Source: Desulfobacteraceae bacterium (GTDB lineage Bacteria > Desulfobacterota > Desulfobacteria > Desulfobacterales > JAABTS01). Taken from it: 64,000 nt of DNA. The number at the start of each line of letters is the position of its first letter. The first letter of the stretch is position 1. The position numbers and the translations under genes were made by a program. Positions 16,202-51,835 of the stretch are shown one piece after another. The notes beneath the pieces were generated by a model. That model did not search any database. It had not been told where the DNA came from and saw nothing but the letters and a program-made list of their open reading frames with translations. Location: contig JAABTS010000006.1 in NCBI GenBank assembly GCA_011389735.1, forward strand, positions 107 to 64,106, given 5' to 3'.

Positions 16202-16222
16202 ATAAATGAAGAGAGGTGACAT

Positions 16223-16838: not shown

Positions 16839-16851
16839 AAGGAACGAACGG

Positions 16852-17817: not shown

Positions 17818-17835
17818 AAAAATACGGAGGTATTC

Positions 17836-18282: not shown

Positions 18283-18357
18283 TAACTTTAAAAAGACTCC
18301 ATTTTAAGGCGTTTTCATTTATCGCCGATATAATAACCCGGGAACGGATCGGTTTGT

Positions 18358-22874: not shown

Positions 22875-24239
22875 CTAAAAATTCCCGGATTTTAATTTAC
22901 CGGCCAAAAATTCAATCTGTTTTTGAACTTTCACATCTTCCTTCATTCCTTTCTCAATCGCTCCCACGGACCTTATAGCGGTCGCATGATACCGGTTGAA
23001 ACTTTTACCAATGGCCTGGAGTGTTTGATCTGTGAATCGTCTGGACAGATACATGGCGATTTGTCGCGGAAACACAATTTTTTGTTTTCGTGATTTAGAG
23101 GTAATCTCGTCTTCGGTGATCCGGTAATGAGTGCAAACCAGCTTTTTAATTGCTTGAATGGTGACCGTCTTCTTGGTATTGGCGATATTGCTCACTACGC
23201 TTTGCGCTAAATCCAGGTCAATGGGGGTTCCCAGCAAGGACGATTTCGCTGTCACGCCGATCAGCCCGCTTTCGAGTTGCCTGATATTTTCAGTCAGCTC
23301 ACCGGCCAAAAATTCGGTAATCTCTCCGGGAATAACATATCCAAAATCTTTCGCTTTCTTCCTTAAAATACGAACTCGTGTCTCAAAATCGGGCGGATCG
23401 ATACTCGGAATAAGCCCACAAGACAATCGCGATTTTAATTGTTCGTTCATTTTCGGAATATCCGCCGGCAGATAGCAGCTTGTAAAAATGATCTTTTTAT
23501 CGGAATCAAAGAGGTAATCCAATGAAAGCGCAAGCTCCACCTGTGTCCGGTCTTTTCCAGTCAGAAAATGAATATCCTCCAATATCAATACATCGCAATT
23601 GGTTCGATATTTTTCTTTGAACGAATTCATGGAATCGTTTCGGATAGCGTGAATCATTTCATTGGTAAAGTCTTCCGCCGTCACGTAATACACGCTGTCT
23701 GTGGGATGTTGAGCCATAACATGGTGCCCGATCGCCTGCGACAAATGGCTCTTTCCCATGCCCGTTCTTGACAATAGAAAAAGGGAATTTTGATGGAGAC
23801 CCTTTCTCGACGCCAGGGAAAGCGACGCCGAATAGGCAAAATCATTGTTGAGCCCCACTACAAAACGGTCAAACGTAAAATTCTTTCTCAATAAACGATT
23901 GCCGGCTGTATAAACATTGATATTCGGCAAGCCCATTTGGCGATTGACCGGTAAATCGGCTTTCGCCTTGGTTACCTTCTTTTCGGAAATTTCCAAAGCC
24001 AGCTTACACTTTTTACCGGTCGCTTGAAGGATTAACGCCTCGATTTGCGGAGTATAATGATCCTGCACCCGTTTTCTCGAAAAAAAATTCGGGCATGTGA
24101 TCACCACCCGATCGTCTTCACACGTCTGAAACTTCAAAGGGTCAATCCACATCCGGTAACTGTGCCCTGGTATCTGTTTCTTAATTTCAGTTTTAATTTC
24201 GTCCCAAATTTTTTCCATTACATACCCGATCCATCTCAA
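22875..24239 (-). CDS. dnaA: chromosomal replication initiator DnaA
   Basis: It has the AAA+ motif LLSRTGMGKSHLSQAIGH. The C-terminal DNA-binding helix region is RQIAMYLSRRFTDQTLQAIGKSFNRYHATAIRSV. An alternative start is the Met at 24218. Confidence 0.93.
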   Translation of the reverse strand: MRWIGYVMEKIWDEIKTEIKKQIPGHSYRMWIDPLKFQTCEDDRVVITCPNFFSRKRVQDHYTPQIEALILQATGKKCKLALEISEKKVTKAKADLPVNRQMGLPNINVYTAGNRLLRKNFTFDRFVVGLNNDFAYSASLSLASRKGLHQNSLFLLSRTGMGKSHLSQAIGHHVMAQHPTDSVYYVTAEDFTNEMIHAIRNDSMNSFKEKYRTNCDVLILEDIHFLTGKDRTQVELALSLDYLFDSDKKIIFTSCYLPADIPKMNEQLKSRLSCGLIPSIDPPDFETRVRILRKKAKDFGYVIPGEITEFLAGELTENIRQLESGLIGVTAKSSLLGTPIDLDLAQSVVSNIANTKKTVTIQAIKKLVCTHYRITEDEITSKSRKQKIVFPRQIAMYLSRRFTDQTLQAIGKSFNRYHATAIRSVGAIEKGMKEDVKVQKQIEFLAGKLKSGNF

Positions 24240-24766: not shown

Positions 24767-24873
24767 AGCCGTCGAAACCGATCTTTTGGAATTTGACAAG
24801 TATCCCTGATGTGGTATTTTCCCATTTGAATTTAATCAGGGCTGATTTTCGAGAGTGTTTGGAAAAAAATGAA

Positions 24874-27699
24874 ATGAATGTGCAAATGATCAAAATTCGA
24901 GGGGCGAGGCAGCATAATCTGAAAAATATCGATGTGGATATTCCAAGGAACAAGCTGGTGGTCATTACAGGGCTATCCGGTTCCGGGAAATCGACATTGG
25001 CGTTTGATACGCTGTATGCTGAAGGCCGCAGGCGGTATGTGGAATCGCTGTCGGTTTACGCCCGGCAATTTTTGGAGCGAATGGAAAAACCGGAAGTCGA
25101 TTTGATCGAGGGGTTGTCGCCCGCCATTGCCGTTGAACAGAAGGCCGCCGCTCATAATCCGCGTTCCACCGTCGGAACGGTCACCGAAATTTTCGATTAT
25201 ATCCGGCTGCTTTACGCCCGAATCGGCGTTCCTCACTGTTATATATGCGGGAAACCTATTACGCCGGAAAGTATAGATCAACTGATTGATCGTGTTATGG
25301 CGTTGGAGGAAAAAACCAAAATCGTGATTCTGTCTCCAGTGGTTAAAAACAGAAAAGGATCGCATGAAGCGGTTTTAAATAAGCTTAAAAAGGAAGGGTT
25401 TTCCCGAGTCCGAATTGATAGCGAAATCAGGGAAATTGAAAACGCCGGGAAATTGAAAAAAGAGAAAGCTCACACGATCGATGTGGTTATCGACCGGTTA
25501 ATCATGAAAAACGGGATTCGAAACCGGTTGGCGGATTCTCTTGAGCTTGCGCTGTCTCAATCCGAAGGCTTGGTGGAAATACATATTCCGGGCGGCGAGT
25601 CGTTTTTGTTCGCTGAAAAAGCGAGCTGTATAGCCTGCGGTGTAAGCTATCCGGAATTCAAACCGGCTCATTTTTCCTTCAATTCCCCGGAAGGCGCATG
25701 TCCTAAATGTGATGGAATGGGAACAATCCGGAAATTGGATCCGGATTTAATCGTTCCTGACCGGAATCTTTCGTTAAGAGAAGGCGCGGTGGTTCCCTGG
25801 GCCAAAAAAAAATCCCTCCATTTTTTGGAATTTCTGGATTCTCTGGCCGGTCATTACGGCGTTGATATTTATACTCCGTTTAAGGAACTGCCTGATCATT
25901 TCAAGCATGTGCTTTTTTACGGTTCCGGGGCTGAAAATCTCCGGCTGCCCGTTATGGATAAATCCGGCGAATCCATCAAAAATGCGCCTTTTGAAGGCGT
26001 CATAAAACAGCTTGAAAGATTTTTGTCTGAAATGGATAGTGATCATGCCGGAAAAGAATTTCAGCGCTATATGTCGTATCAGCCATGTCCGGAATGTCAT
26101 GGGGCAAGGCTGAATGTCGCCTCGAGATCCGTAAAGATAAACGGCCGTTCCATTCCGGAAGTGGCTTCCATGCCTATACCGGCCTGTCGCACATTTTTTC
26201 AAACAATAGAAGCTACATTATCCCATAAAGACAGTCTCATCGCAAAAAAAATCACAAGTGAGATCCAGGACCGAATCCGTTTTCTTGAAAACGTCGGCCT
26301 TAGTTATCTTACTATCGACAGATCCGCTGCAACGCTGTCCGGCGGTGAGAGCCAGAGGATCAGGCTGGCCACTCAAATCGGATCGAAATTGACAGGCGTT
26401 CTCTATGTCCTGGACGAACCGAGTATCGGCCTGCATCAGCGTGATAACCGCCTTCTATTATCCGCGCTTTTTACCATGAGGGATTTTGGAAATACGATTC
26501 TGGTTGTGGAACATGATGAAGAAACCATCCTGGAAGCCGACCATATCCTCGATTTAGGTCCTGGGGCAGGGGTGAAGGGGGGAGAAATCGTCTTTTCGGG
26601 TACGGCCGGGCGACTTCTGGAATGTCAGGAGTCGCTGACGGGCCAATACCTGTCCGGGGCCAAACGAATCGAGATTCCCCATCGGCGGCGGCCCGCCTGC
26701 GGTTTGCATCTGGCGGTTGAAGGCGCCGGAGCCAATAACCTCAAAAACATCGATGTCGCCTTCCCTCTGGGCTGTTTTATTTGCGTCACCGGTGTATCCG
26801 GTTCCGGGAAATCTTCCCTTGTCATTGAAACTTTGTATAAAATATTGATGCGGAAAAAATATCGATCTCATCACCCCTCCGGTGAGTGCAAGAAAATCGC
26901 GGGCATTGAACATATCGATAAAGTGATCCATATCGATCAGTCACCGATCGGGAAAACCCCTCGATCCAATCCGGGCACCTACACAGGTCTTTTTTCAAAC
27001 GTTCGAGAGATTTTTGCTAAAACTCCCGAGGCGAGGGTTCGGGGGTATAAATCCGGGCGTTTCAGCTTTAATATGAAAGGCGGGCGGTGTGAAGCGTGCA
27101 AAGGGGATGGGATGATTAAAATCGAGATGCATTTTCTGCCCGATATTTATGTTCCATGCGATGTTTGTAAAGGGGCCCGTTATAATCGGGAAACTCTGGA
27201 AATCAAATATCGAGGGAAGAATATCGTGGATGTTTTGGATATGACAATCAATCAAGCCATACCGTTTTTCGAAAAAATTGCTGCAATTCGAATAAAATTG
27301 GAAACCCTCGCTTATGTCGGATTGGGATATATAAAAATCGGCCAGCCGGGTACGACATTGTCCGGAGGGGAAGCGCAACGGGTTAAACTGGCAAGGGAAC
27401 TGAGCAAAAAAGGGACGGGGTCCACCTTATATATATTGGACGAACCGACCACGGGACTTCATATCGAAGATGTGAAAAAGCTCCTAGATGTCCTTGATAA
27501 GCTTGTTGATTTGGGCAATACCGTCGTTGTGATCGAGCATAATCTGGACGTGATAAAATGCGCTGATTACATTATCGATTTAGGGCCGGAAGGCGGTGAA
27601 GACGGCGGGTATGTGGTAGGAGTGGGAACTCCGGAAGAAATTGCGCGTAACGAACAATCTTACACGGGCCGGTTTCTGAAAAAACGATTGGCCCTTTAG
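24874..27699 (+). CDS. uvrA: excinuclease ABC subunit A
   Basis: The sequence begins [24 protein letters not shown]...[14 protein letters not shown]. It has a second ABC module ([11 protein letters not shown]) and zinc-finger Cys clusters. The ATG at 24874 is preferred over the track start. Confidence 0.95.
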
Positions 27700-37424: not shown

Positions 37425-39182
37425 ATGAATACAAATCCTGCGGTAAGCACTCCGGTATCAGAAAAAATAAAACAGATCGCCATCGCAAAACGCGATATTC
37501 TGACGCTGCCGTCTGAAAAGGCGCTTTCAGCTATTTTAGAATTTTCCCAGCCGGCCGCTCTTGTTCAGTCTTTTTCCGAAGGCGATTTTTATTTTCTCGT
37601 CCACGATATCGGTCCGGACGACGCCCTGGAATTGTTGGCGTTGGCGTCTTTTGACCAGTGGCGCTATATCCTTGATCTTGAAATGTGGGACCGGGACAGA
37701 ATCAACAACCTTCCGGCCACAAGATGGCTTTCAAGACTTTTTCACGCCGACCCGAACCGTTTTGTCTACTGGTTTTTGCATGACGGCATGGATATTGTCG
37801 ATTTTTACCTGTTTAAAAACGTCATTGTTCAGGCCAGGGAACATGATCAAGATCCTTCAGATTTTGGCGATGGTTATGAGACTCTTGACGATTCACTCTA
37901 TTTTAATATTTTCGATTCGCCGCAAGATGATTTTTCCTCTGATGACCGGGAACGCAAAAAACAGTTTTTACTCCAATTTTTTAAACAATTATCATCCTGG
38001 GACCATATCGTTTACCAGAATAAGCTGTTCGAATTTCCTGCGATAATGCCCGCAGAATTCGAAGAAGAATTATACAGGCTCAGAAATGTCCGCCTTGCGG
38101 AAAAAGGATTCAGTGTTCGAGACGAGGCGATGGGCGTTTATCAACCGATATCGTCCGGCCGGATGGATCAATACGCAAGGAGGAAGCCCGCCAAATATGA
38201 AAGCGCCTCGCCTCAAGCCCTATCTTTATATTCCACCGGTGTTATGGATCCGGACACGCTTTTTGTCCGATCATTGCAAGCCGTCGAAACGGAAGATATT
38301 CTGGCTGAACTGCAATCGGAATTTGCAAGCCTGTGCAATCAAATTGTTTCTGCGGACGGGGCGCCTGTCCGGAATCGGGACGATCTTTCGAAGGTGGTCA
38401 AAAAAGTATGTGGTTATATCAATATCGGGTTGGAAACAGCGGCCGGAATATGGGAGCAAACGCCGGATAACTTAGCGGCTTCGTTCCTTAAACAATATCT
38501 GTTGCAGGCGGTTTTCCAATTAGGGTACGGCCGGGCGGTCGAAATCAAACAACGCGCTCAAAAATGGAAAAAAGGTTCATGGACGGAAAAAAACCATCTG
38601 CCTTTGAGTTTTTGGAGCGAAGAACGGCTAGGCGTACTTGGCGGCCTTTTATTGAAGCGCCCCCTTTATTTCGATAACTATGAAACAGGCGTGTTGTATC
38701 GCGAGTTTGAAAGCATTGCGGATATCGAAAAAACCGAAACCACCTTGAACCGGATTATGGCTTGCGACCGGCTTTTGTCGTATATGGATTTTGATTTGAA
38801 TCCGGAAGTATCCCGCCTGCTGGCTGCGAACGGGCTGCTGAACGAAAAAAATCTCATTTTAACCCTCTGGGCGCGTCGCTCCCTGAATTTGGAACCTGTA
38901 GCGGATTATATCGATTTATCGATGTTCGCCGGTTTTTTCGACGCGTTATGGGAAAAAGAAGTAGCTTATCCTAAAATTCGAGATGAAGCGAAAGAGGATT
39001 TCTTTTTATGGATCAGGGAATCTCTGCCCGCCGGTTCCAGGGATGACATCGACACGCTGGAACCGGTGTTCATGGATTTGTTTGAAGAGGTGGAAAACGA
39101 ACTCGGCAATATCGGCGGCGGTGATATAGAACCGAAATATGTTCAATTGTTCCTTCTAAAGCCAACCTTAAACGAGCCATAG
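37425..39182 (+). CDS. conserved hypothetical protein (585 aa)
   Basis: The long ORF has even composition. I cannot securely recognise a family. Its stop codon is supplied by the terminus of the adjacent repeat. Confidence 0.5.
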   Translation: MNTNPAVSTPVSEKIKQIAIAKRDILTLPSEKALSAILEFSQPAALVQSFSEGDFYFLVHDIGPDDALELLALASFDQWRYILDLEMWDRDRINNLPATRWLSRLFHADPNRFVYWFLHDGMDIVDFYLFKNVIVQAREHDQDPSDFGDGYETLDDSLYFNIFDSPQDDFSSDDRERKKQFLLQFFKQLSSWDHIVYQNKLFEFPAIMPAEFEEELYRLRNVRLAEKGFSVRDEAMGVYQPISSGRMDQYARRKPAKYESASPQALSLYSTGVMDPDTLFVRSLQAVETEDILAELQSEFASLCNQIVSADGAPVRNRDDLSKVVKKVCGYINIGLETAAGIWEQTPDNLAASFLKQYLLQAVFQLGYGRAVEIKQRAQKWKKGSWTEKNHLPLSFWSEERLGVLGGLLLKRPLYFDNYETGVLYREFESIADIEKTETTLNRIMACDRLLSYMDFDLNPEVSRLLAANGLLNEKNLILTLWARRSLNLEPVADYIDLSMFAGFFDALWEKEVAYPKIRDEAKEDFFLWIRESLPAGSRDDIDTLEPVFMDLFEEVENELGNIGGGDIEPKYVQLFLLKPTLNEP

Positions 39183-39317: not shown

Positions 39318-39923
39318 TCAAACGTCTTTAACAAACTGAATCAGTTTCGCCGATGAATATTCTCCCGTGTCGGCCAGGCCGTCCAGGGGCAAAAAGGCGT
39401 CTGCGTTGTTTGAAAACAAACAGGAGGCTGACGCCGGAAAATCTTCATCCTCGAAATAAAACAAATAGCAAAGCGCGATTTTGGGAAATGGGTTGATTAC
39501 AAAGGATACGTCTCCGCTCAAATCCGCCGGCGCCATTTCACCGTCAAACCGTTCGATAACGGCGTCGAGGTTGTCGTTGATCCTTCCGACAAAAGGGATC
39601 AACGCCTGCTCGGTACGGTTCGCGAAAGCTCCAACATAAGGCATGCTTCCCTTAAAATCCTTGTACGCTTTATAGGGTTCCTTGATCAAGGCGTTTGAAT
39701 TCGCGTGAAGAGCGTACAAAGAAATCAAGATCCCTAAAACACCTGTTTCTCGAACGTCGGACAAAAAGACACCGCCGGGCCGAATTCGGCAGTCCTCGCC
39801 GAACGCCTTGAATTTGAATTCGTCGCCATCCTGATCGGCGTTGAGGTTCGTCGCCGTATCAGAGGATCGTGTCCGATAAAATTGGCTGACGTTGTTTTCA
39901 ACTATCTGTGCATAATTATCCAT
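39318..39923 (-). CDS. DUF3786-like protein
   Basis: This 201-aa protein shares its layout with the C-terminal part of the 63128..63958 product. Shared elements are an F.FKAFG/ILGKDFSV strand, ...YALHA/NYVIHG..., a PFPKIALCYLFY/PLPRVPLMICYQ block and an acidic FEDEDF/PEDGME segment. The family name is from memory. Confidence 0.45.
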   Translation of the reverse strand: MDNYAQIVENNVSQFYRTRSSDTATNLNADQDGDEFKFKAFGEDCRIRPGGVFLSDVRETGVLGILISLYALHANSNALIKEPYKAYKDFKGSMPYVGAFANRTEQALIPFVGRINDNLDAVIERFDGEMAPADLSGDVSFVINPFPKIALCYLFYFEDEDFPASASCLFSNNADAFLPLDGLADTGEYSSAKLIQFVKDV

Positions 39924-40238: not shown

Positions 40239-41459
40239 TCAAAATTTATCGAAGGCGATCATTTCGTCTTCGACTCCAAGTTCGTAAAGCATTTCTATGA
40301 CCGCGTCGAGCATCATGGGCGGACCGCACAGGTAATATTCGATTTCCGTCGGATCGTCATGGGTTGAAAGATAATTGTCGTATAACTGATTATGGATGTA
40401 TCCGGTCATGCCCTCCCAGTCGTCATCGGGGAGCGGCGCGGACAGAGCCGCATGGTAGGAGAAATTCGAGTATTCGTCTTCAAGCGTCTTGAATTCGTCG
40501 TAAAAAAAGAGTTCCTGTTTGGAACGGGCGCCGTACCAGAAGCTCATTTTTCGTGAGGTGTTCAAGGTTTTCAATTGATGGAGGATCTGGCTCCTTAAAG
40601 GAGCCATGCCGGCCCCGCCGCCGACAAAGCACATTTCCCGTTCTGTTTCCTTGACTTTGAATTCACCATATGGCCCGCTGAAGGTGATTTTATCTCCGGG
40701 TTCCAAATTGAAAATAAACGATGATCCCTTTCCGGGAGGCGCTTCAGCGCCCTGTGGGGGTGTCGCGATACGAATGGTGAAGCTAAGCCGTTGCCGTTCG
40801 CTGGGCGGATTCGCCAGCGAATAAGCCCGGAAAATCGGTTCTTCGATTTTGGATTGCAATCCCCACAGATTGAATTTGTCCCAATCCGGCCTGAACCGTT
40901 CAGCCACCCGGATTCTGAATTCGGAAAACGAAAGCTCGTATTCGGGAATATCGATCTGAATATACGCGCCGGCTTCGAAATCAAGCCCTTCGTCATCCTC
41001 AACCTCAATCACCAGTTCCTTGATGAATGTGGCCACATTCTCGTTGGATACCACCACGGCGTTGTATTTCTTGACGCTGAAAATATCTTCAGGAAGCTGG
41101 ATCGATAAATCTTCCTTGACTTTTAACTGGCAGGCGAGCCGGAAATTTTCTTTTCGTTCCTTACGGCTAAGATGGGACAATTCCGTGGGTAATACGCCCC
41201 CACCGCCTTCCATCACTTTGCATTTGCACATCCCGCAGGCGCCGCCGCCGCCGCAGGCCGACGGAATGAAAATCCCGTTGTCCGAAAGAGCCGCAAGAAG
41301 CGTCGTTCCGGCAGGGGCATCAATGCTTTTACTCTCATCGTTGTTGATAACGATCCGGTTGTCGCCGGTCTGAACAACTCGTGATTGAACCAGAAGCAGC
41401 GTACCCGTCAAAAAAAGGATAATCAATGTGAAAACAATAACGCCAATCGCAAAAACCAA
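40239..41459 (-). CDS. nqrF: Na+-translocating NADH:quinone oxidoreductase subunit F
   Basis: It has an N-terminal TM segment and a 2Fe-2S motif (CGGGGACGMCKC). It also has the FAD motif RAYSLAN and an NAD-binding domain. Confidence 0.93.
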   Translation of the reverse strand: MVFAIGVIVFTLIILFLTGTLLLVQSRVVQTGDNRIVINNDESKSIDAPAGTTLLAALSDNGIFIPSACGGGGACGMCKCKVMEGGGGVLPTELSHLSRKERKENFRLACQLKVKEDLSIQLPEDIFSVKKYNAVVVSNENVATFIKELVIEVEDDEGLDFEAGAYIQIDIPEYELSFSEFRIRVAERFRPDWDKFNLWGLQSKIEEPIFRAYSLANPPSERQRLSFTIRIATPPQGAEAPPGKGSSFIFNLEPGDKITFSGPYGEFKVKETEREMCFVGGGAGMAPLRSQILHQLKTLNTSRKMSFWYGARSKQELFFYDEFKTLEDEYSNFSYHAALSAPLPDDDWEGMTGYIHNQLYDNYLSTHDDPTEIEYYLCGPPMMLDAVIEMLYELGVEDEMIAFDKF

Positions 41460-41500: not shown

Positions 41501-42109
41501 TTATAACGCAATCCCCGAGAAGATCATGAATCCCATCGCCATTAGACCGGTGACAATCATTGTGATTCCGTATCCTTCCAGCCCTTTGGGAATATTCGCG
41601 TACCTGAGTTTGACTTGAATGGCGGCCATGGATGCGATCGCAAGCAGCCATCCGACGCCCGCTCCGAATCCGAACACCAGGGTTTCCATGAGAGTGTAGC
41701 TCCGTTCGACCATGAACAGGGATGTCCCGAGAATAGCACAGTTCACGGCGATTAGCGGCAAGAAAACGCCCAGAGCCGTGTAGAGTTCGGGCGAGAAGCG
41801 GTCGATCACCATTTCCACCGCCTGAACCAGGGCCGCAATGACCGCGATGAAAGTGATCAACTTCAGATAGCTGAGATCCGCCTCTGGAAAGCCGGCCCAG
41901 GACAAAGCGCCCGGGGCCAGAAAAAACCGGTATACGGCCCAATTGACCGGCGCTGTGATCGTACACACGAATACTACGGCGAATCCTAGCCCCACAGCGG
42001 TGTTCATGTTCTTTGACACCGCCACGAACGAACACATGCCCAAAAAATAAGCCAGCAAAATGTTTCCGACAAATACGGAATTTATGAACAGGCTGAATAA
42101 GTTTTCCAT
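41501..42109 (-). CDS. nqrE: NQR subunit E
   Basis: The sequence begins [28 protein letters not shown] and has 6 TM segments. Confidence 0.93.
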
Positions 42110-42113
42110 AGCG

Positions 42114-42740
42114 TCACACTTTCATAAGGGATTTTTGGAGCCACACCAGCAGGCCGATGATAATGAAGGCCGCAGGCGCAAGAAGCATAAAGCCCATATC
42201 TTCATATCCCGCGCGATACAAGAACTCAGGCGTGATCTTGAACCCGAACACCGTTCCGGAGCCGAGCAGTTCCCGGATAAAGGCCACGCTGATCAACACC
42301 AGGCTGTAGCCGAATCCATTGCCCAGGCCGTCCAAGAGGGAGGCGCCGGGGGAGTTCCCCAGTGCGAAGGTTTCTGCTCTCCCCATGACGATACAATTCG
42401 TGATGATCAGCCCGACGAATACGGATAATTGTTTGCTGATATCATAAAAATAGGCGCGTAAAAATTCATCGGCAAGGATCACCAGGGATGCGATGACGCT
42501 GAGTTCCACGATCATCCGGATATTTCGCGGAATGTAATTGCGCATCGACGAGATTATCAGGTTTGAAAAAGCCACGACGAACGTCAAGGAGAGACCCATG
42601 ACCAGAGCGGCTTTTAATTGCACCGTCACCGCCAGCGCCGAACATATGCCCAGGGACTGGATCGAAATGGGATTGTTTTTGGCCAGAGGCTCTTTAAACA
42701 CTGAAAATGATTTGCTTTTGAACAGCTTCATGGGATACAC
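42114..42740 (-). CDS. nqrD: NQR subunit D
   Basis: It contains [17 protein letters not shown] and is a 208-aa polytopic protein. Confidence 0.93.
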
Positions 42741-42871: not shown

Positions 42872-43597
42872 TCAAAAGGGTCGCTCTTTTTCTGAAAAAA
42901 AGGATCCGTCTTTTCTGAATCGGACGGACATGGGTTCGTAATATTTCAGAATTTCTTCGAATCCGGCGGTCAAAAATTTTCCTGTGAGCGTGGCGCCGCT
43001 GATTCCGTCTACATAATTCGGTTTTTGTTCTTTGGGGGCGTCGTCTTTCACGCTTCCCTTCGCGACGTTGATGGACACGAAACGGCCCTCCGAATCCGTA
43101 ATTTTTTTCCCCTTAAAATTGTTCTGGAACCAGGCTTTTTCAATTTCGCCGCCCAGACCAGGCGTTTCCGAATGCTTATAGACCGTAAACCCTATGATGG
43201 TTGACCCGTCCCGGCTCAACGCCAGATATCCATAGATCTTTCCCCATAAACCCCGCGTATTGATCGGAACCACATAGGCGTTTACCCTGTCGTTTTCCAT
43301 GTACAACCAGACCGGCAAAGTTTTTTCCGGATGTTCCTCGCCTGTTTCAATCACTATACCGTTTTGATCCAGAGCCAGATTGCGGATATTTTCTTTATAG
43401 CTATTTTCGATCCATTCCCGGCCGTGGGAATCGTTTTCGGCGATAAGTCCCACCGCTTTCAGAATATTCTTCTTTTTATCCAATTCAACGTTTCGCATCT
43501 GTTTGGGCTTCAATCCCAGGGATGCGGCGGTAAGCAGGACGCTGCACACTATAGCGGTCAACGAAGCGAAAATCAATGATTTAAGATTGTTAGACAT
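42872..43597 (-). CDS. nqrC: NQR subunit C (FMN-binding)
   Basis: It contains the covalent-FMN site motif GISGATLTG. The ATG at 43595-43597 lies 2 nt after the nqrB stop and is preferred over the track start at 43633. Confidence 0.88.
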   Translation of the reverse strand: MSNNLKSLIFASLTAIVCSVLLTAASLGLKPKQMRNVELDKKKNILKAVGLIAENDSHGREWIENSYKENIRNLALDQNGIVIETGEEHPEKTLPVWLYMENDRVNAYVVPINTRGLWGKIYGYLALSRDGSTIIGFTVYKHSETPGLGGEIEKAWFQNNFKGKKITDSEGRFVSINVAKGSVKDDAPKEQKPNYVDGISGATLTGKFLTAGFEEILKYYEPMSVRFRKDGSFFSEKERPF

Positions 43598-44780
43598 TGA
43601 TGATACGTCTCTTGAGTCTGAGTTTGATTTCAATAAAATCCAACAAGGGCGAAAACAGGTTCATGAACAGGATGGCAAGCATCACGCCTTCGGGATAGGC
43701 CGGATTGAAAAGCCGGATCAGCACGGTTAGCGCCCCGATAGCGAATCCGTAGATCCATCTCGATCTCTCCATGCCCGGGGCTGTGACCGGATCGGTGGCC
43801 ATGTAGACCACGCCGAAAGCAAACCCGCCCATTACGAGATGATACACCGGATGAAGGGACAGCATGGGCGAAAGGCTTCCGGTGAACGAGGCCAGCAGGT
43901 GCAGAGGCCAGGTCACCGCCAGCACGCCGATAATTCCGCCGATAATAATCCGGTAACTGGCGATTCCGGCGGCGATCAGAATCACGGCGCCGATCATGCA
44001 CATAAACGCCGATGTTTCACCGATACTCCCGGGATGCAGGCCGAAAAACAGTTTTGACAGCGTATATCCCGACCCGGCCAGCGACTTTTCAACGGATTGG
44101 CCGGCCTCAACCGCGTTTGAAATCGCAAGGGGCGTGGCTGATGAAACCGCATCGACAACGCCTTCCCTGGCCCTGCATACGACAGCCCATACCGAATCCC
44201 CGGACATTTGGGACGGATACGCAAAAAATACAAATGCGCGGGCCGTCAATGCGGGATTTAAAATGTTCCTCCCCGTGCCGCCGAAAATTTCCTTGCCGAT
44301 CACCACGCCGAATGAAATTCCGACCGCCGCCTGCCACAGAGGCATGGTCGGCGGGAGTGTCAGCGGAAACAGAAGTCCGGTCACCAGAAATCCTTCGCTG
44401 ATCGGATGGCGACGGATCACCGAAAAGAGTATTTCCCAGGCGAATCCCACCGTATACGAAACGATCACCAGGGGCAGAACAATCACCAATCCTCGAAAAA
44501 AAGCGTTCGAAAGCGTCGGGATTTCCCCGGCCGTCATGCAGGCATGAAATCCCGTATTGTAAAGACCGAACAAAAACGGGGGTATCAAGGCCAGGATCAC
44601 AATGGTCATGAAACGTTTCAGATCCAGACTGTCTCGGACATGGGAATCCCTGTCCGTGGGGATCGACGGGAAAAAAAACAAGGTTTCGAACGCCTCGAAA
44701 ACAGGCTCGAATTTTTCGTACTTGCCTCCGCTGGTGAATCGAGGCCGCTGTGAATTGAAAAAATTCTCCAGGAATTTCAT
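43590..44780 (-). CDS. nqrB: NQR subunit B
   Basis: It is polytopic and has the FMN-site-like motif VDAVSSATPL. The ATG at 44778-44780 overlaps the nqrA stop (TAATG) and is preferred over the track start at 44876. Confidence 0.9.
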   Translation of the reverse strand: MKFLENFFNSQRPRFTSGGKYEKFEPVFEAFETLFFFPSIPTDRDSHVRDSLDLKRFMTIVILALIPPFLFGLYNTGFHACMTAGEIPTLSNAFFRGLVIVLPLVIVSYTVGFAWEILFSVIRRHPISEGFLVTGLLFPLTLPPTMPLWQAAVGISFGVVIGKEIFGGTGRNILNPALTARAFVFFAYPSQMSGDSVWAVVCRAREGVVDAVSSATPLAISNAVEAGQSVEKSLAGSGYTLSKLFFGLHPGSIGETSAFMCMIGAVILIAAGIASYRIIIGGIIGVLAVTWPLHLLASFTGSLSPMLSLHPVYHLVMGGFAFGVVYMATDPVTAPGMERSRWIYGFAIGALTVLIRLFNPAYPEGVMLAILFMNLFSPLLDFIEIKLRLKRRIINV

Positions 44781-46126
44781 TATCCGTTGATTTCCTTGTA
44801 ATACGCCGCTTTTGCGGTCTTCAGGGTGTCCGATAAATCGATTTTGGACGGGCAAACATAGGTGCATGCGCCGCATTCAACGCAATCCAGCAATCCATGA
44901 AGGAGCGATTCTTCTATTTCATCGGCCGCAATGCATTTCATGGCGTACTGCGGCAGAATATCCACCGGACACACCCGCGCGCAATATCCGCAGTTGATGC
45001 AGGCTCGTTTTTCACCGTGAAAATCGCAATCATAATCCTTTTCCCGCTTGTTGAACACTGAAAAAAAGGCCCGGGATCGGCTGGGTTTTGAAAATCCCGG
45101 CCGGATGAAACCTAAGAACGATTTTCCGGCTGCTTCAGGCAATACGGTCAGGGAACGGTCGTAAAATCCGAGATGCGATTCGGGAGACGCCATGAGCCCG
45201 TTAAACACGCCCCCGGCGATAAACCTCGTTCCATTGTTTCCCGGTTCGATTTTGGCGATATGCGACAGAGGGGAGCCGATCCGGGCGACGACATGTTCCG
45301 GACCGGCGATTGAGCCGCCGCCCAGCGCAACGGTCCGAGTCAGCGGGTACTCGCCGGTTTTCAGAAACCTTCCCAAACGGATTACATCCTGCCCGTCAAT
45401 ATACCAGGCCTGATTTTCTTCCGGAGATTCCTTGATATAATACAAAAACACGCCCGGGTCGCCGGCTGGATAATCGCCGGAAACGGTATGGGTCACTTTG
45501 GTTTTGAGCAGGCTCAACACCGGGGTGTCGTCATCGCCGGAAACGGCGACATGAACCCTGGGCGCCAATCGATATAGAGCGGAAAGACCGAACCGGAAAA
45601 CGTCTTCGGCCCCTTTCAAATACACTTCCGGCAGGGGCTGAAAAGGTTCCGCTCCGTTAAGGGTCACGATGATGGCGGGAGGCGTAACATCGGGGTCCGC
45701 TATCATCCGGAAGGGCAATGAACGGAACGCGGGCCACAATCCGCCGCCGGATAGGAGCGAAACCAGCTCATCTCTGGATATTTGACCGATCCGGTCTTCG
45801 CTGAGCGGTTCAAACGATTTTTGTTCCTCATTGGAATCCAGTTCGATTAAAATTTCCTTGATCACCCGCCGGGGGCCGTATGTGATCTTCGAAACCGTTC
45901 CGCCGCCGGGGGATAGAAATTTAAAACGAGGTTCGCGTTTATCCCTGTATAACAGCGATCCGATCTTGACCGAATCCCCGGTTTTGACGCTCAAGCGAGG
46001 TTTTATAGCCGGGAACCTGTACGGCGACACGCCGACATGAGTTGGATCGCCAAGAATCCGAACGGTTTTTGAGGGGGTTCCGGATATGTCGAGCCTGAGC
46101 CCCTTATTGATAGAGACTGATTTCAT
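44780..46126 (-). CDS. nqrA: NQR subunit A retaining an RnfC-type 2x[4Fe-4S] ferredoxin motif pair
   Basis: The N-terminus MKSVSINKGLRLDISGTPSK...VKTGDSVKIGSLLYRDK and the mid-region are NqrA-like. The C-terminus has CINCGYCARVCP and CVECGACTYVCP. Confidence 0.88.
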   Translation of the reverse strand: MKSVSINKGLRLDISGTPSKTVRILGDPTHVGVSPYRFPAIKPRLSVKTGDSVKIGSLLYRDKREPRFKFLSPGGGTVSKITYGPRRVIKEILIELDSNEEQKSFEPLSEDRIGQISRDELVSLLSGGGLWPAFRSLPFRMIADPDVTPPAIIVTLNGAEPFQPLPEVYLKGAEDVFRFGLSALYRLAPRVHVAVSGDDDTPVLSLLKTKVTHTVSGDYPAGDPGVFLYYIKESPEENQAWYIDGQDVIRLGRFLKTGEYPLTRTVALGGGSIAGPEHVVARIGSPLSHIAKIEPGNNGTRFIAGGVFNGLMASPESHLGFYDRSLTVLPEAAGKSFLGFIRPGFSKPSRSRAFFSVFNKREKDYDCDFHGEKRACINCGYCARVCPVDILPQYAMKCIAADEIEESLLHGLLDCVECGACTYVCPSKIDLSDTLKTAKAAYYKEING

Positions 46127-46586: not shown

Positions 46587-48503
46587 ATGCAGATCGCAGA
46601 TCGAATATGGATACCCGAAGGAACGAGAGCGTTTCTGTTCGATATGGACGGCGTACTTCTGGATACGCTGACCTTTGATTTGATCCATTGCGCCCGGCTG
46701 CTCGAAAAATATACGGGAAAACACATTCCCCTTTCCAAAAGGTTTATCAGATCGTTATTCGCCTACCATCCCCCGGAATTTTGGCGGCGGATTCTGGATT
46801 TCGCCGAGCGTGAGCATCAGGTTCAAAACACCCAAAAACACCTGAACGCAATTCTCGAGGAATACAACGGGCTTCGAAATTCACAGTCCTATTCGCTCAA
46901 TCCTGGAATTCGGGAGATCCTCGATACGCTGAAATCACTTAATATCAAAACCGCATGCGTTTCCAACACGCCGATTGCAGATGTAGAGCGAATTTTGGCC
47001 CAATCCCGTTTAATCGATGATTTCGCTGTAATCGTGGGCAATGATATCGCGGATCTTGAAAAAAAACCGGCTCCGGACACCTATCTATATGCGGCCGAAG
47101 TCCTTGACGTGGAACCGGCCCGATGCGTCGTGATAGAAGATTCTCTGCTCGGCGCCGAAGCAGGCCGCCGCGCCGGATGTTTTACCATCGGCGTGGCCAC
47201 CGGGAGCGCCGATTTTGAAATCCTTGAAAAATCCGGTTTTACGGATTGCGTGTACACGTCTTTCGATACAAACCGCATTGGCGTCACATTCGGAGATGTC
47301 ACACAAAAAAAAATCCACACTCCGAATGAATTCGTGAGCCATATGATAGAGCACGTCGCCTGGCGGATTTGTGTTTCCATTCATATTGAATGGCGGTCCA
47401 ACGACTGGTTCGAATTGGGGAAAAATCTCGGAGGGCGAATCGGGGCGTTGGGATTTTACAGGAATGAAGGCGCGGCCATAGGGATGATCGACGACGGCTG
47501 CGCTGAAGCCGCAATTAAACGAACGGCTTACCCCGAATGCGTTATTGAAACCACGGCGGGCATGTCTCGCGACTGGTTTATGAGGCTCCGATGTGAACAA
47601 CTGCCAGGCGGCGAACCTCTGGCCGATTTAATCAACGGTCTGGCTCACGGCCTTTCCGCCTCTGTTAGGGTTCGTGTCCCCATGATCGAAGATCCCCATC
47701 ATTCCTGGGAAGGCGTTTTCAGATCGATTGGAATCGCCCTTGGCCGGATGGTTACGCCTGAACCTCCACAGATTGACACCAGCGAGGTCTCTGATGAACC
47801 GGACATTTCCAGGGGCGCCGTCAGCATTCTTGAACGATCCGCCCATTTCGCCGAAGCAATTCGAACAACTGCGGAAAGCCGGGTAAAGGTGAAGGTCGAT
47901 GTAAATGGATATGTTCCGGCGGTTTGCAAATTCGAAGTTTCGCCGTCCATCAAAGTTGATGGAGCGGCGGAATTGCTGGATATCCTGTCCGGATCAGCGG
48001 ATTTCGCCATCAATGTGGAATTTAAGGCGGAAGCGCTGAGTTCCAGCCACGTAGTTCTGGAAGATATCGGCCTTTTGCTGGGCAGAGCCCTCAAGGAAAT
48101 CCTGATCGTTCGAATGACTCATTTCGGCGTGAACGGCGCTGGATCGAGCGTAGCTTCGATTCAGGATTTCAATGACTTTCCCATACGGGCCGCAGTAAGC
48201 GTAGAAGGCCGAAAATTCTGGAAATTTGTTCCGTTCGACACCTCCTATGACCGGTTCCGGGAAAATTTTTTAATCGGCCATACACTCGATAACGGATTGT
48301 TCTCCGAAGATCTGGACGATTTTATCGATGGTCTGACCAATGGGATGGACGCTGCGGCGGTCTTTCATGTGGCGCACCACGTCGAACCGGACGCAGGATG
48401 GCGAATGACGTTCGATCACCTGGGACGCGCTCTGAAAGAAGCTTTTTTCTGTAATCCGTATCGCAAAGGCGTGCCGCCGGGAGTCAAGGCGACCTTGGAA
48501 TAG
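46587..48503 (+). CDS. HAD-superfamily phosphatase fused to two tandem imidazoleglycerol-phosphate-dehydratase-like domains
   Basis: The N-terminus has HAD motif I (FLFDMDGVLLDT) and VIEDSLLGAEAGRRAG. Two IGPD-like repeats follow. They contain FVSHMIEHVA, EDPHHSWEGVFRSIGIALG, SSHVVLEDIGLLLGRALKE and AHHVEPDAGWRMTFDHLGRALKEA, ending in an IGPD-like GVPPGVKATLE. All of this was read by eye. Confidence 0.6.
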   Translation: MQIADRIWIPEGTRAFLFDMDGVLLDTLTFDLIHCARLLEKYTGKHIPLSKRFIRSLFAYHPPEFWRRILDFAEREHQVQNTQKHLNAILEEYNGLRNSQSYSLNPGIREILDTLKSLNIKTACVSNTPIADVERILAQSRLIDDFAVIVGNDIADLEKKPAPDTYLYAAEVLDVEPARCVVIEDSLLGAEAGRRAGCFTIGVATGSADFEILEKSGFTDCVYTSFDTNRIGVTFGDVTQKKIHTPNEFVSHMIEHVAWRICVSIHIEWRSNDWFELGKNLGGRIGALGFYRNEGAAIGMIDDGCAEAAIKRTAYPECVIETTAGMSRDWFMRLRCEQLPGGEPLADLINGLAHGLSASVRVRVPMIEDPHHSWEGVFRSIGIALGRMVTPEPPQIDTSEVSDEPDISRGAVSILERSAHFAEAIRTTAESRVKVKVDVNGYVPAVCKFEVSPSIKVDGAAELLDILSGSADFAINVEFKAEALSSSHVVLEDIGLLLGRALKEILIVRMTHFGVNGAGSSVASIQDFNDFPIRAAVSVEGRKFWKFVPFDTSYDRFRENFLIGHTLDNGLFSEDLDDFIDGLTNGMDAAAVFHVAHHVEPDAGWRMTFDHLGRALKEAFFCNPYRKGVPPGVKATLE

Positions 48504-48753: not shown

Positions 48754-49449
48754 TCACCTGACGATACATGATTCCACCCAGGGATCGGCGATGGATTTGA
48801 AATATAAAAGATCGTTTTCGTGATACCGCTGTTCAGGAACGGTAAATTGCTCCGGATCGAGAACGGTTTCGGTTCTCAGTTTTTGAAGCGCGTATAATTT
48901 CGCTCCGGAGATAGTCCGGGCGATACCGTCCACCGCCCGGGCGTCCACCAGAGATCGCATACAAGTGGTTTTAAATTCATAAGGAAGGCCGGATTCCATT
49001 ATAATTCCAACGCTGTTAAATACGTCTTCCGTGGAGGCGTTGGATTTTATTAGCGATCCATAATGTTCGGGATCTGTTTTAATGTCCATGGCGATATAAT
49101 CGACAAGATTTTGTTGAATCAGAAATTCGAGCGCATGGGGGCGGCTGCCGTTGGTGTCCAGCTTTACCGGATATCCGAGATGCTTTAAACGGCGGCAAAG
49201 ATCCGGAAGATCCTCGTGGAGCGTGGGTTCTCCGCCGGAAATGACCACGCCGTCCAGAAATGAACGCCGCTCCTTCAAAAAGTCGTATATGCCCGCTTCC
49301 GATATGCAGGATTCACAAGGCGCGCATTTCACCAGTTGAGGGTTGTGGCAGTAAGGGCATTTAAAATTGCATCCCGAAAGAAACAGAACGCAGCAAATCT
49401 TGCCCGGATAATCGATCATTGAATTTTTTTGTACGCCGCCGATGATCAT
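48754..49449 (-). CDS. nrdG: anaerobic ribonucleotide reductase activating protein (radical SAM)
   Basis: It has the CNFKCPYCHN cluster motif and GGEPTL. The gene lies downstream of nrdD. Confidence 0.88.
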   Translation of the reverse strand: MIIGGVQKNSMIDYPGKICCVLFLSGCNFKCPYCHNPQLVKCAPCESCISEAGIYDFLKERRSFLDGVVISGGEPTLHEDLPDLCRRLKHLGYPVKLDTNGSRPHALEFLIQQNLVDYIAMDIKTDPEHYGSLIKSNASTEDVFNSVGIIMESGLPYEFKTTCMRSLVDARAVDGIARTISGAKLYALQKLRTETVLDPEQFTVPEQRYHENDLLYFKSIADPWVESCIVR

Positions 49450-49516
49450 TTTTGTACTCCATATCTTGACGGATTGAACGGCGGGAATTTTTCAGGCCGT
49501 TCAATCCGGATTAGTA

Positions 49517-51628
49517 TCAGGCCACTTTAAAGGTTTTTCTTTTTAAAAATTCCGCCTGTTTTCCGTTGTTCCATTGTTTGACCGGTCTGAGATACCCTAC
49601 GACTCGTGAATAAATTTCCGTTTCACCGCCGCATATTTCGCATTTTTCCTGCATGCCGTTGAGATAGCCGTGAGACGGGCAGACGCTGAACGTGGGCGTC
49701 AGGGTGAAATACGGAAGCCTGTAATTAGAGGATATTTTCCGGATCAGACTTTTAATGGTTTCGATATTGTCGACCTGTTCTCCCAGGAAGATGTGAAGAA
49801 CCGTGCCGCCTGTATATTTGGACTGCAGATCGTCCTGCAATCTCAAGATTTCGAATATATCATCCGTATAATTTACCGGCAATTGAGACGAATTGGTGTA
49901 ATATGGGCCGTCGTCTTTTTGGTAATCCTCTTCGTTGGCGCAAATGATATCGGGATATTTGTTTTTATCCAATATGGCGAGCCTGTATGACGTGCCTTCG
50001 GCCGGAGTCGCTTCCAGGTTGTAAATATCTCCGGTTTCTTCCTGATATCCGGCGATAATGTCCCTCATGAAGTCCATCACCTTGATCGCAAACGCGCCGC
50101 CCGATTGGCTGCCGATATCGTCGCCCACAAAATTCATGCAGGCTTCGTTCATGCCGATAATGCCGAAGGTCGAAAAATGATTTTTCCAGTACAGCCCGCT
50201 TCCCTCCTTGATGTCCCTCAAATAAAATTTGGAATAGGGATAAAGGTTCTTGTCTGTGAACTGTTCGAGAATCTTCCGTTTGATAGTGAGGCTGTTTTTT
50301 GCCAGATTCAGCATGAATTCCAGCCGCTTGAAAAAGTCAGCTTCATTCGACGCCAGATATCCGATTCTGGGCAGATTGATCGTGACCACGCCTATCGATC
50401 CCGTCAACGGGTTGGCGCCGAACAACCCTCCGCCGCGTTTCAACAGCTCCCGGTTGTCCAGCCGGAGCCGACAGCACATGGACCTGGCGTCTTCCGGAGA
50501 CAGATCCGAATTGACAAAGTTCGAAAAATAGGGAATGCCGTATTTGCCCGTCATTTTCCAGACCATTTCCAGATTGGGATTGTCCCAGTCAAAATCGGCC
50601 GTAATATTATATGTGGGAATCGGGAATGTGAACACCCGGCCCTTGGCGTCCCCGGCCATCATGATTTCAGCGAAGGCCCGGTTTAACGTGTCCATTTCAT
50701 TCTGAAATTCGGAATAGGTCGCATCCAATTCCGCGCCGCCGATAATTACCGGATGGTCCTTGAGAATTCCAGGAACGTAGAGATCCATGGTGATATTCGT
50801 AAACGGCGTTTGAAATCCAACCCGCGTAGGAATGTTGATATTGAATACAAATTCCTGTAACGCCTGCTTGACATCGGCGTATGACAGACCGTCATATCGA
50901 ATGAACGGGGCAAGCAGAGTGTCAAAGTTGGAAATGGCCTGAGCTCCAGCGGCTTCACCCTGAAGCGTATAGAAAAAATTGACGATCTGGCCCAGAGCAG
51001 TCCGCAGATGCTTGGGCGGAGCGCTCTCGACCTTGCCCTCAACGCCTTTGAACCCCTGCTTGAGAAGATCCTTTAAATCCCATCCCACGCAATACACAGA
51101 CAACAAGCTCAAATCGTGAATATGAATGTCCCCGTTTTTATGCGCGTTTCTGATTTCCGGCGGATATATCCGGTTAAGCCAGTATTCCGATGTAACATCC
51201 GATGAAATGTAATTGTTCAATCCCTGGAGAGAATAGCACATATTACTGTTTTCTTTAATTTTCCAGTCAAGTTTCCGAATATAGGATTCAACCAGATCTA
51301 CATTGGCCGACGTCACCAGATTACGGATCTGAGCGTGTTGCTCCCGGTAGATAATATATGCTTTCGCGCTCTTGTAATACGTCGTATCCAAAAGCACGCG
51401 TTCCACAATATCCTGTATTTCTTCGACTTCGGGAACCGGCCCGAACCTCATTTCATGAGCGAGCGTCAAAACCCGGAGGGTCAGTTTTTTCGCTACCCGC
51501 TCCGTAAACTCCCCTGTCGCCTTCCCGGCCCTGCTAATGGCCGCAGTAATCTTGGATGAATCAAATTCAACTTCTCTTCCGTCTCGTTTTCTGATTTGTT
51601 CAAACACTTTGTTTACCTCTCTACACAT
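49517..51628 (-). CDS. nrdD: anaerobic (class III) ribonucleoside-triphosphate reductase
   Basis: It has an ATP-cone (VFEQIRKRDGREVEFDSSKI). The C-terminus has a zinc site (CPSHGY...CEICGG) and a glycyl-radical motif (SRVVGYLRP). The start is either the ATG at 51628 or the GTG at 51607; the track start at 51805 lies inside the operator. Confidence 0.92.
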   Translation of the reverse strand: MCREVNKVFEQIRKRDGREVEFDSSKITAAISRAGKATGEFTERVAKKLTLRVLTLAHEMRFGPVPEVEEIQDIVERVLLDTTYYKSAKAYIIYREQHAQIRNLVTSANVDLVESYIRKLDWKIKENSNMCYSLQGLNNYISSDVTSEYWLNRIYPPEIRNAHKNGDIHIHDLSLLSVYCVGWDLKDLLKQGFKGVEGKVESAPPKHLRTALGQIVNFFYTLQGEAAGAQAISNFDTLLAPFIRYDGLSYADVKQALQEFVFNINIPTRVGFQTPFTNITMDLYVPGILKDHPVIIGGAELDATYSEFQNEMDTLNRAFAEIMMAGDAKGRVFTFPIPTYNITADFDWDNPNLEMVWKMTGKYGIPYFSNFVNSDLSPEDARSMCCRLRLDNRELLKRGGGLFGANPLTGSIGVVTINLPRIGYLASNEADFFKRLEFMLNLAKNSLTIKRKILEQFTDKNLYPYSKFYLRDIKEGSGLYWKNHFSTFGIIGMNEACMNFVGDDIGSQSGGAFAIKVMDFMRDIIAGYQEETGDIYNLEATPAEGTSYRLAILDKNKYPDIICANEEDYQKDDGPYYTNSSQLPVNYTDDIFEILRLQDDLQSKYTGGTVLHIFLGEQVDNIETIKSLIRKISSNYRLPYFTLTPTFSVCPSHGYLNGMQEKCEICGGETEIYSRVVGYLRPVKQWNNGKQAEFLKRKTFKVA

Positions 51629-51783
51629 CTTGAATTGTCGGATTTTTTTCAGAATTCGCTTAAATATGCACAAATCATTCTTTTTCGCCTTGACCGGCGA
51701 ACCTTCAATGTCCTTTAACCGGTTCCGTTTTTTCAGGCTCAAGCGCGAAAAAACAACATGAACCATATTCAACCGGTAAATCT

Positions 51784-51835
51784 GTAATACCCAATATATT
51801 GACACATGTCAACCCCATAAATCTATATATTGGGG
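51784..51835 (-). promoter_or_regulatory. nrdD promoter with tandem NrdR boxes
   Basis: The minus strand reads ccccaatatatagatttatgggg TTGACA tgtgtcaatatattggg TATTAC. Two CAATATAT-type palindromic boxes have centres about 31 bp apart. The second box fills the 17-nt spacer between -35 and -10. Confidence 0.6.

Follow-up and report, generated by a model that had tools for sequence, protein, structure and literature searches.

The nqrA gene and its cysteine motifs

The stretch of DNA analyzed here (the window) covers 64,000 nucleotides from a Desulfobacteraceae bacterium (assembly GCA_011389735.1, contig JAABTS010000006.1, positions 107 to 64,106) and contains an nqrABCDEF operon for a predicted sodium-pumping NADH:quinone oxidoreductase (NQR). 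Translation of the open reading frame (ORF) of its first gene gives an NqrA that has two complete CxxCxxCxxxCP motifs at the C-terminus. In the Na+-NQR as described in the literature, NqrA is expected to be without cofactor residues, whereas NqrA of the window has eight cysteines homologous to those of RnfC, a subunit of the RNF complex. The gene and its relevant parts are as follows.

44780..46126, minus strand: nqrA, 448 amino acids; fold of NqrA that keeps a ferredoxin domain of the RnfC type (Pfam NQRA_N, NQRA_2nd and Fer4_7)
44798..45013, minus strand: C-terminal 2x[4Fe-4S] ferredoxin domain, as predicted, residues 372-443; homologous to RnfC 361-433
44966..45001, minus strand: motif 1, CINCGYCARVCP, residues 376-387 (C376, C379, C382, C386 and P387), from re-translated DNA
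44849..44884, minus strand: motif 2, CVECGACTYVCP, residues 415-426 (C415, C418, C421, C425 and P426), from re-translated DNA
45707..45748, minus strand: relic of the RnfC flavin mononucleotide (FMN)-binding loop, GGGLWPAFRSLPFR, residues 127-140, from an alignment with four RnfC sequences and 7xk3_A

An earlier reading made from the sequence alone (the sequence-only reading) had placed both motifs within 44780-45010, and re-translation found both inside this interval. Motif 2 is followed by the NqrA-specific SKI(D/E). In Pfam searches, NQRA_N and NQRA_2nd cover the N-terminal two thirds of the protein, and 4Fe-4S families (Fer4_7, Fer4_9 and Fer4 with 34.2, 31.8, and 31.1 bits, respectively, all above the gathering scores) span residues 373-430. 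Complex1_51K was not matched in Pfam and the middle of the protein is NQRA_2nd instead, in agreement with the earlier statement that this part is NqrA-like. NCBIfam models of NqrA align from end to end; the best of them, NF003761, gives 448.4 bits, marginally under its cut-off of 450, and TIGR01936 gives 297.9 bits against a cut-off of 321.05, which is below the equivalog level. The rnfC model TIGR01945 matches only locally, at residues 372-443 (E=1.3e-25, 89.9 bits with the cut-off at 245.95), and this is the sole RnfC signal of the protein among NCBIfam models.

The comparison with RnfC that the sequence-only reading had proposed finds the cysteines positionally homologous to those of the RnfC ferredoxin domain. 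Seventy-three NqrA residues align with Clostridium tetanomorphum RnfC 361-433 (7zc6_C) with zero gaps and 8/8 cysteines matched, the same region aligns ungapped with Acetobacterium woodii RnfC 368-433 (9eri_C), again with 8/8 cysteines, and the RnfC references (these two, Azotobacter vinelandii 8ahx_C, and Escherichia coli RsxC), when put in one multiple alignment with it, have Cys in the identical eight columns in all four cases. RnfC and NqrA thus share the ungapped ferredoxin domain, and both are cytoplasmic subunits docked on an RnfD/NqrB homologue. They differ in that the window protein is without the G(L/M)GGAxFPT loop and has NqrF, not RnfB, as its operon partner. Where the four RnfC sequences read G(L/M)GGA(T/I/G)FPT, NqrA of the window has GGGLWPAFRSLPF, i.e., GGGLWPAF in place of GxGGAxFP, and the absence of a GxGGAGFP-type flavin/NADH motif had been noticed correctly.

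Vibrio cholerae NqrA (7xk3_A, 8a1u_A, and 4u9o) shares with the window protein the overall fold, the head position in nqrABCDEF, the same decayed flavin loop (GLWTAFRTRPF in Vibrio; GLW..FR..PF), and a colinear C-terminal domain with a ...C..VCP(S/G)K remnant. It differs in being cofactor-free, with none of the four cysteines of motif 1 and two of motif 2 (lalCTFVCPGK), while the window protein has all eight; the earlier statement that only ...LCTFVCPGK survives in Vibrio, at the second position, was accurate. The relic loop (residues 127-140) is homologous to Vibrio NqrA G126-K138, which includes the segment F131-K138 photoaffinity-labelled by ubiquinone (UQ). An AlphaFold2 model built on 32 homologues has a predicted local distance difference test score (pLDDT) of 90.9 and a predicted template modeling score of 0.91, with block pLDDT of about 86-93 across residues 381-440 in the ferredoxin domain. 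By Foldseek, the model matches V. cholerae NqrA (8a1y_A and 7xk3_A) with a template modeling (TM) score of 0.91 and 29-30% identity, and RnfC with 0.72-0.74 and 16-17%. The window protein is NqrA rather than RnfC, and keeps RnfC's cluster-binding domain. We hold its identity and its RnfC ancestry with great confidence, and from the motifs we expect, with only slightly less assurance, that it binds two [4Fe-4S] clusters.

The nqrABCDEF operon

The operon consists of six colinear genes, nqrA to nqrF, with NqrF as the entry module and no rnfB. The five genes after nqrA are listed below with their NCBIfam scores.

43590..44780, minus strand: nqrB, 396 amino acids from an ATG overlapping the nqrA stop; NF003756, 491 bits (cut-off 414)
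42872..43633, minus strand: nqrC as listed; TIGR01938, 186.8 bits (cut-off 144)
42114..42740, minus strand: nqrD; NF006777, 294 bits (cut-off 235)
41501..42109, minus strand: nqrE; TIGR01940, 292.5 bits (cut-off 247.55)
40239..41459, minus strand: nqrF, the NADH-oxidizing entry subunit; TIGR01941, 570.6 bits (cut-off 295)

Each of NqrB to NqrF is above its own equivalog cut-off and, judged from aligned residues, every standard NQR cofactor site is intact in these subunits. The FMN-attachment threonines are T216 of NqrB (SSAT, aligned to Vibrio T236) and T215 of NqrC (SGAT, aligned to Vibrio T225 in 7xk3_C), and the riboflavin-binding Asp of NqrB is kept in MATDPV, at the equivalent of Vibrio D346, whose role at the riboflavin site has been described (PMC10643135). 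The cysteines of the intramembrane [2Fe-2S] center, C33 and C116 of NqrD and C26 and C124 of NqrE, are aligned to Vibrio C29 and C112 (7xk3_D) and C26 and C120 (7xk3_E), respectively, and NqrF has 2Fe-2S ferredoxin, flavin adenine dinucleotide, and NAD domains (Pfam Fer2, FAD_binding_6, and NAD_binding_1). NqrB of the window shows strong similarity to its Vibrio counterpart (340 bits). The window protein is therefore a genuine NqrA heading a canonical nqrABCDEF operon, and the sequence-only reading was right to call the operon bona fide on the basis of the NqrF module and the flavinylation sites of NqrB and NqrC.

Some starts in the mechanical ORF list need comment. The nqrA stop and the nqrB start overlap in TAATG (44778-44782), and the list stretches nqrB 32 codons upstream, into nqrA. 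For nqrC, the likelier start is the ATG at 43597, 12 codons downstream of the listed TTG; nqrC would then overlap nqrB by 8 nucleotides, like related operons.

Distribution and conservation of the eight cysteines

When 5.8 billion proteins were searched by word index, there were 1126 matches at E <= 1e-10, of which the best 120 were inspected. All 120 keep the eight cysteines, and apart from the window's own protein their identity to it is 50-57%. The proline next to motif 1 gives way to Ala, Ser, or Thr in five of the 120. Such a substitution, counted in about 11% of relatives, could favor a role of the cysteines other than [4Fe-4S] binding, such as Zn binding or disulfides. The exact CxxCxxCxxxC(P) spacing occurs twice, with the linker ungapped as in cluster-containing RnfC structures, and the ferredoxin domain was modeled at high confidence; both points argue against such a role, which we consider very improbable.

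An exhaustive HMMER search of 1.84 billion representatives at 50% identity gave 512 proteins at E <= 1e-30, and the best 150 clusters were scored. Eight cysteines (8-Cys NqrA, here also called Fe-S NqrA) are present in 68 and five in six; the remaining ones have zero to three as in Vibrio, except for two odd partial states and several fragments without the region. The pattern of the 5-Cys proteins is xxxCCCCC in four (P0150, P0166, P0173, and P0209) and CCCCxxxC in two (P0148 and P0188), and each pattern equals one full ferredoxin-type four-ligand set (C4 with C5-7, or C1-3 with C8), so that the retained cluster differs between one-cluster lineages. Their sources are Gemmatimonadota and Elusimicrobiota (P0166 and P0150 between them) and marine samples (P0148 and P0188), with loci L084 and L085 in addition, and the one-cluster genes are all in ordinary nqrABCDEF operons. 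They are like the window gene in their operons and as states in the same loss series, where they are intermediate, and differ from it in having a single four-Cys set where NqrA of the window keeps both.

One genome per GTDB species was also scanned, and at least 586 genomes have an NqrA relative bearing [YF][VA]CPSKI[EDN][LI]; since this signature is common to many Cys-less NqrA, the number is not a count of Fe-S forms. Among these genomes, the best 80 loci all have the eight cysteines. They belong to Desulfobacterales and allies, with one metagenome-assembled genome (MAG) labelled Nitrospinaceae, and include two complete genomes, Desulfosarcina alkanivorans PL12 and D. variabilis Montpellier, as well as a Desulfosudis oleivorans MAG. 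Desulfonema magnum is among the protein matches with eight cysteines, so that Desulfosarcina, Desulfonema, and Desulfosudis are cultured carriers, and the more distant named 8-Cys clusters are from Marinamargulisbacteria/Margulisbacteria and Riflebacteria, while the Cys-less NqrA closest to the query are from Marinimicrobia, Calditrichota, and Spirochaetia. The survey of Cys-retaining clades that had been proposed thus points to Desulfobacterales, Margulisbacteria, and Riflebacteria, and the rarity implied by the sequence-only reading does not hold, because the state was found throughout the best proteins and best loci, in nearly half of the best clusters, and in several phyla. A distribution restricted to strict anaerobes was also considered and is not borne out, in view of 8-Cys NqrA in surface-ocean Marinamargulisbacteria, for which a terminal oxidase and O2 respiration have been predicted.

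Constraint on the motifs is strong. When 32 diverse 8-Cys NqrA are aligned (mean identity 36%), no more than 18 columns are invariant, and the motif cysteines account for eight of these; G129, W131, and P138 of the relic loop are invariant, too. All related loci with sufficient downstream sequence have colinear nqrABCDEF, save two MAG contigs, and the deep 8-Cys and 5-Cys genes are also in nqrABCDEF operons, often followed by apbE. We conclude that 8-Cys NqrA is typical of a large, strongly constrained, early-branching NQR lineage and is not peculiar to this genome.

The two exceptional contigs are L012 (a Desulfonema MAG contig, 9001-13309), where the gene after an 8-Cys nqrA is not nqrB but a convergent one that resembles polyketide synthase genes, and L006 (Desulfobacterales HSG2, 12500-19326), where nqrABC is without nqrDEF in the next 6.8 kb. 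Either an orphan gene or a split operon may be behind these arrangements, or the contigs may be chimeras of the assembly. The closest relative in the genome collection (L002, CAXMTB010000184.1, 55% identity) is the MAG labelled Nitrospinaceae; in operon layout and identities it is almost the same as Desulfobacteraceae MAGs L003 and L004, which may point to mis-binning or a recent transfer.

The Fe-S subfamily is captured by none of the curated NqrA models (NF003761, TIGR01936, NF003759, NF003762, and NF003758). NF003761 scores of 8-Cys NqrA range from 292 to 463 bits against the cut-off of 450, most of the others falling short by a wider margin than the window protein; three of six tested are under every NqrA equivalog cut-off, like NqrA of the window, and two of the other three are narrowly over. 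This is why the NCBI name "4Fe-4S dicluster domain-containing protein" is so frequent. NF003761 was considered as a curated model of the Fe-S subfamily and rejected, since its top scorer is the Cys-less FCB-type P0175 (537 bits; FCB, Fibrobacteres-Chlorobi-Bacteroidetes) and most 8-Cys proteins are below its cut-off.

Origin and direction of change

A neighbor-joining tree was constructed from 127 full-length representatives and four RnfC (E. coli RsxC and three solved chains), with the Cys columns excluded. When rooted with RnfC, 8-Cys NqrA form a paraphyletic basal grade and the 63 Cys-less NqrA fall in one crown, whose nearest neighbors are four xxxCCCCC proteins and one 8-Cys protein. The crown including these neighbors was recovered in 47 of 60 bootstraps. 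Two points weigh against this picture: strict monophyly of Cys-less NqrA was recovered in only 13 of 60 bootstraps, and the tree has a long outgroup branch and a sample biased toward the query.

The ferredoxin domain was also compared with the Cys columns removed. The identity of 8-Cys NqrA is 33% to Cys-less NqrA and 26% to RnfC, and that between Cys-less NqrA and RnfC is 16%. In addition, a CPSKI(E/D) tail is common to 8-Cys and most of the sampled Cys-less NqrA and is absent from RnfC. These identities and the tail point to vertical retention of an ancestral domain and not to a recent graft of an RnfC C-terminus, by RnfC/NqrA recombination or assembly chimerism. A graft would be in line with rnfC being the best local model for residues 372-443 and with the rnf operons in Desulfobacterales genomes as possible donors. 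The domain is nonetheless nearer to Cys-less NqrA than to RnfC and has the NqrA-specific tail, Vibrio NqrA is colinear across the entire region, and the architecture recurs in independent assemblies that number in the hundreds, among them cultured strains with complete genomes, so that the graft is effectively refuted.

NqrA of the window is thus, in all likelihood, a descendant of RnfC that kept the C-terminal domain for two [4Fe-4S] clusters and lost the FMN/NAD(H) site. It belongs to a large, early-branching grade of Fe-S NqrA in Desulfobacterales, Margulisbacteria, Riflebacteria, and unnamed lineages, from which cofactor-free NqrA, as in Vibrio and the FCB group among others, probably derives via one-cluster intermediates. 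The sequence-only reading had suggested an evolutionary intermediate, and this is supported, in the form of a whole conserved lineage, by the positional homology of the cysteines, the intermediate ferredoxin domain, and the basal position of 8-Cys NqrA in the tree. Because the 8-Cys state is homologous with RnfC, it would be ancestral, and a transfer of a Cys-less operon from Chlorobi to Desulfobacteraceae cannot then account for the Desulfobacterales genes.

Possible role of the clusters

If the clusters were on the electron pathway, NADH would be oxidized at NqrF and electrons would take the usual path from the [2Fe-2S] center of NqrD/E to FMN of NqrC, FMN of NqrB, and riboflavin of NqrB. 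From riboflavin they would pass to the proximal [4Fe-4S] cluster of subunit A and to the distal one, as in RNF, where riboflavin of RnfD is 11.7 Å from [4Fe-4S]RnfC-2, followed by cluster 1 and FMN (PMC9588780). The clusters would carry electrons about 25-30 Å inward, as far as the conserved relic of the flavin pocket in NqrA (GLW...RxxP loop), and a terminal acceptor, most likely a menaquinone head group and otherwise a protein partner, would be reduced there. In the Cys-less crown, the cluster wire would have been dropped, with quinone reduced directly at NqrB.

In Vibrio, photoreactive UQ labels NqrA at L32-M39 and F131-K138, and the labelled cavity fits the UQ ring but is about 30 Å from riboflavin, which was judged to be beyond electron-transfer range (PMC9325719). 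Since F131-K138 is homologous to the FMN loop of RnfC, two RnfC-like clusters would span this gap. UQ was also located in NqrB of the Vibrio enzyme, 11.6 Å from riboflavin and touching G141; by the authors' account, any replacement of this glycine would sterically block the binding of quinone (PMC10643135). The Vibrio quinone contact Gly140-Gly141 is Gly-Phe in NqrB of the window, where residue 113 (in VGFAWE) is the Phe at the G141 position and the G140 equivalent is kept. The G141 position is non-Gly in 77 of 77 related Desulfobacterales operons (Phe, Leu, Tyr, or Ser) and in all Marinamargulis and Riflebacteria operons examined. G141 is the glycine of the korormicin/2-heptyl-4-hydroxyquinoline N-oxide site as well as a quinone contact, and the replacement may bear on the inhibitor sensitivity of these enzymes.

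On the strength of the RNF wiring, the photolabelling of NqrA, the invariance of the relic loop, and the replacement of G141, we favor an on-pathway role of the NqrA clusters, though tentatively and with slightly less than even confidence. The full proposal, that the clusters are the missing wire from riboflavin of NqrB to the relic FMN pocket of NqrA, with the acceptor reduced in NqrA and not in NqrB as the ancestral NQR mechanism, is more speculative and appears rather unlikely to us. Several points weigh against an on-pathway role. Of the deep 8-Cys operons, two have Gly at the G141 position, and Leu is found there in a single Cys-less operon, from Marinimicrobia, so that the correlation of this position with the Cys state of NqrA is imperfect across lineages and is suggestive only. 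Cluster binding, redox potentials, and electron flow in Fe-S NqrA are all inferred. For electrons from the riboflavin of NQR, [4Fe-4S] clusters of the typical low potential could lie uphill. Finally, NqrB of the window is close to that of Vibrio and its N-terminal stretch is kept, and direct transfer from riboflavin to quinone at NqrB is possible.

Such direct transfer, to menaquinone, is part of an alternative in which the clusters are bound but off the pathway, either serving structure or assembly as a legacy of RnfC or acting as a redox/O2 sensor. The Vibrio enzyme functions without clusters, with UQ in NqrB within the distance given above; the riboflavin-binding Asp is kept in the strongly Vibrio-like NqrB of the window; several lineages lost one or both clusters and yet kept the operon, so that the clusters are dispensable in principle; and a stabilizing role for NqrA has been suggested in reviews (PMC12174285). 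However, the invariance of eight ligands at about 30-36% identity exceeds the usual constraint on a fold-stabilizing relic, the quinone-contact Gly141 is replaced in the window and its 77 relatives, and the full four-ligand sets of one-cluster NqrA suggest that each cluster was kept or lost as a functional unit. We assign this alternative a low probability, though not a negligible one.

The sequence-only reading had also mentioned an extra entry or exit route for electrons. In this case, the clusters would form a port between riboflavin of NqrB and ferredoxin, flavodoxin, or a partner in sulfate reduction, parallel to quinone reduction at NqrB, which implies a three-way or reversible RNF/NQR hybrid complex. 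RNF uses the same domain for the exchange of electrons by riboflavin with a cytoplasmic site, most of the hosts are anaerobes whose metabolism centers on ferredoxin, Desulfobacterales carry Rnf as well (PMC11887813), and the loss of FMN may leave the distal cluster more exposed. An extra port is nevertheless improbable in our view, as the 80 related loci have no conserved partner gene beside the operon, apbE alone is seen there in deep lineages, and 8-Cys NqrA occurs also in the predicted O2 respirers of the surface ocean. Returning to the on-pathway role, we regard the statement that combines it with the RnfC ancestry and the Fe-S grade as somewhat more probable than not.

Relation to published descriptions

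Reyes-Prieto et al. (2014; PMC4014512) described NqrA as having no cofactor sites, with the cysteines of RnfC lost, and found the Desulfobacteraceae NQR to be basal together with Chlorobi/Bacteroidetes, which was explained by transfer from Chlorobi. NqrA is without FMN and both clusters also in the paper on C. tetanomorphum RNF (PMC9588780) and in a 2025 review of RNF and NQR, and Nqr is mentioned, with no remark on NqrA, in papers on the genomes of Desulfobacterium, Desulfotignum, Desulfococcus, Marinamargulisbacteria, and Desulfobacteraceae. A description of Fe-S NqrA was not found in the openly searchable full-text literature, with subscription-only papers outside the scope of the search. 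As far as searched, therefore, the architecture is visible in databases and apparently undescribed. The sequence-only reading had allowed that Cys-retaining NqrA might be a common, already documented state; common it is, but documented it is not in the searchable literature, where structural papers and reviews as late as 2025 call NqrA cofactor-free.

NqrA is the one NQR subunit without an assigned function, and Fe-S NQRs offer a natural system for probing subunit A. Evolutionary accounts say that NqrA lost the clusters of RnfC, and the two-, one-, and zero-cluster forms would be living intermediates of the RNF-to-NQR transition. Fe-S NqrA also questions the published rooting of NQR in Chlorobi/Bacteroidetes, and the NQR of abundant marine sulfate reducers may deliver electrons unlike the Vibrio enzyme that underlies drug-target and bioenergetic models. 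If reduction of the acceptor in NqrA is true, it would explain the conservation of a "functionless" NqrA and of the GLW...P loop everywhere, and would make sense of the labelling and binding of quinone, long disputed, at a site of Vibrio NqrA some 30 Å from riboflavin. The origin of NQR would then move from the Chlorobi/Bacteroidetes of the 2014 proposal to cluster-bearing anaerobes, reversing the transfer from Chlorobi to Desulfobacteraceae.

Neighboring genes and the window

Divergent from nqrA, at 46587-48503 on the plus strand, is a gene for a 638-amino-acid protein with an N-terminal haloacid dehalogenase (HAD) hydrolase domain and, within a long C-terminal part, a weak match to imidazoleglycerol-phosphate dehydratase (IGPD; E=1.7e-10); it is HisB-like and almost double the usual size. 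Directly downstream of nqrF, a gene for a DUF3786 protein (39318-39923, minus strand) adjoins one for a DUF6178 protein (37425-39182, plus strand). None of DUF3786, DUF6178, HAD-IGPD, and NrdDG recurs in the 80 related nqr loci, and only apbE recurs, in other lineages; the link of DUF3786/DUF6178 to nqr is probably incidental.

The genes nrdD and nrdG of a class III anaerobic ribonucleotide reductase were assigned from translations at 48754-51805 on the minus strand, where the listed nrdD ORF probably begins too far upstream, at GTG; as predicted products, they indicate an anaerobic or facultative lifestyle. At 22875-24239 (minus strand) and 24793-27699 (plus strand), dnaA and uvrA are adjacent and divergent, and no clear switch in GC skew was seen near them at 4-kb resolution, so that a replication origin is not evident. 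No tRNA gene and no Rfam match at gathering score was found across the 64-kb window. Among the matches listed, the NQR of the window is nearest to Desulfobacterales NQR, at <=57% identity, and the window looks like a chromosomal segment (dnaA, uvrA, and PEPCK) of an anaerobe.

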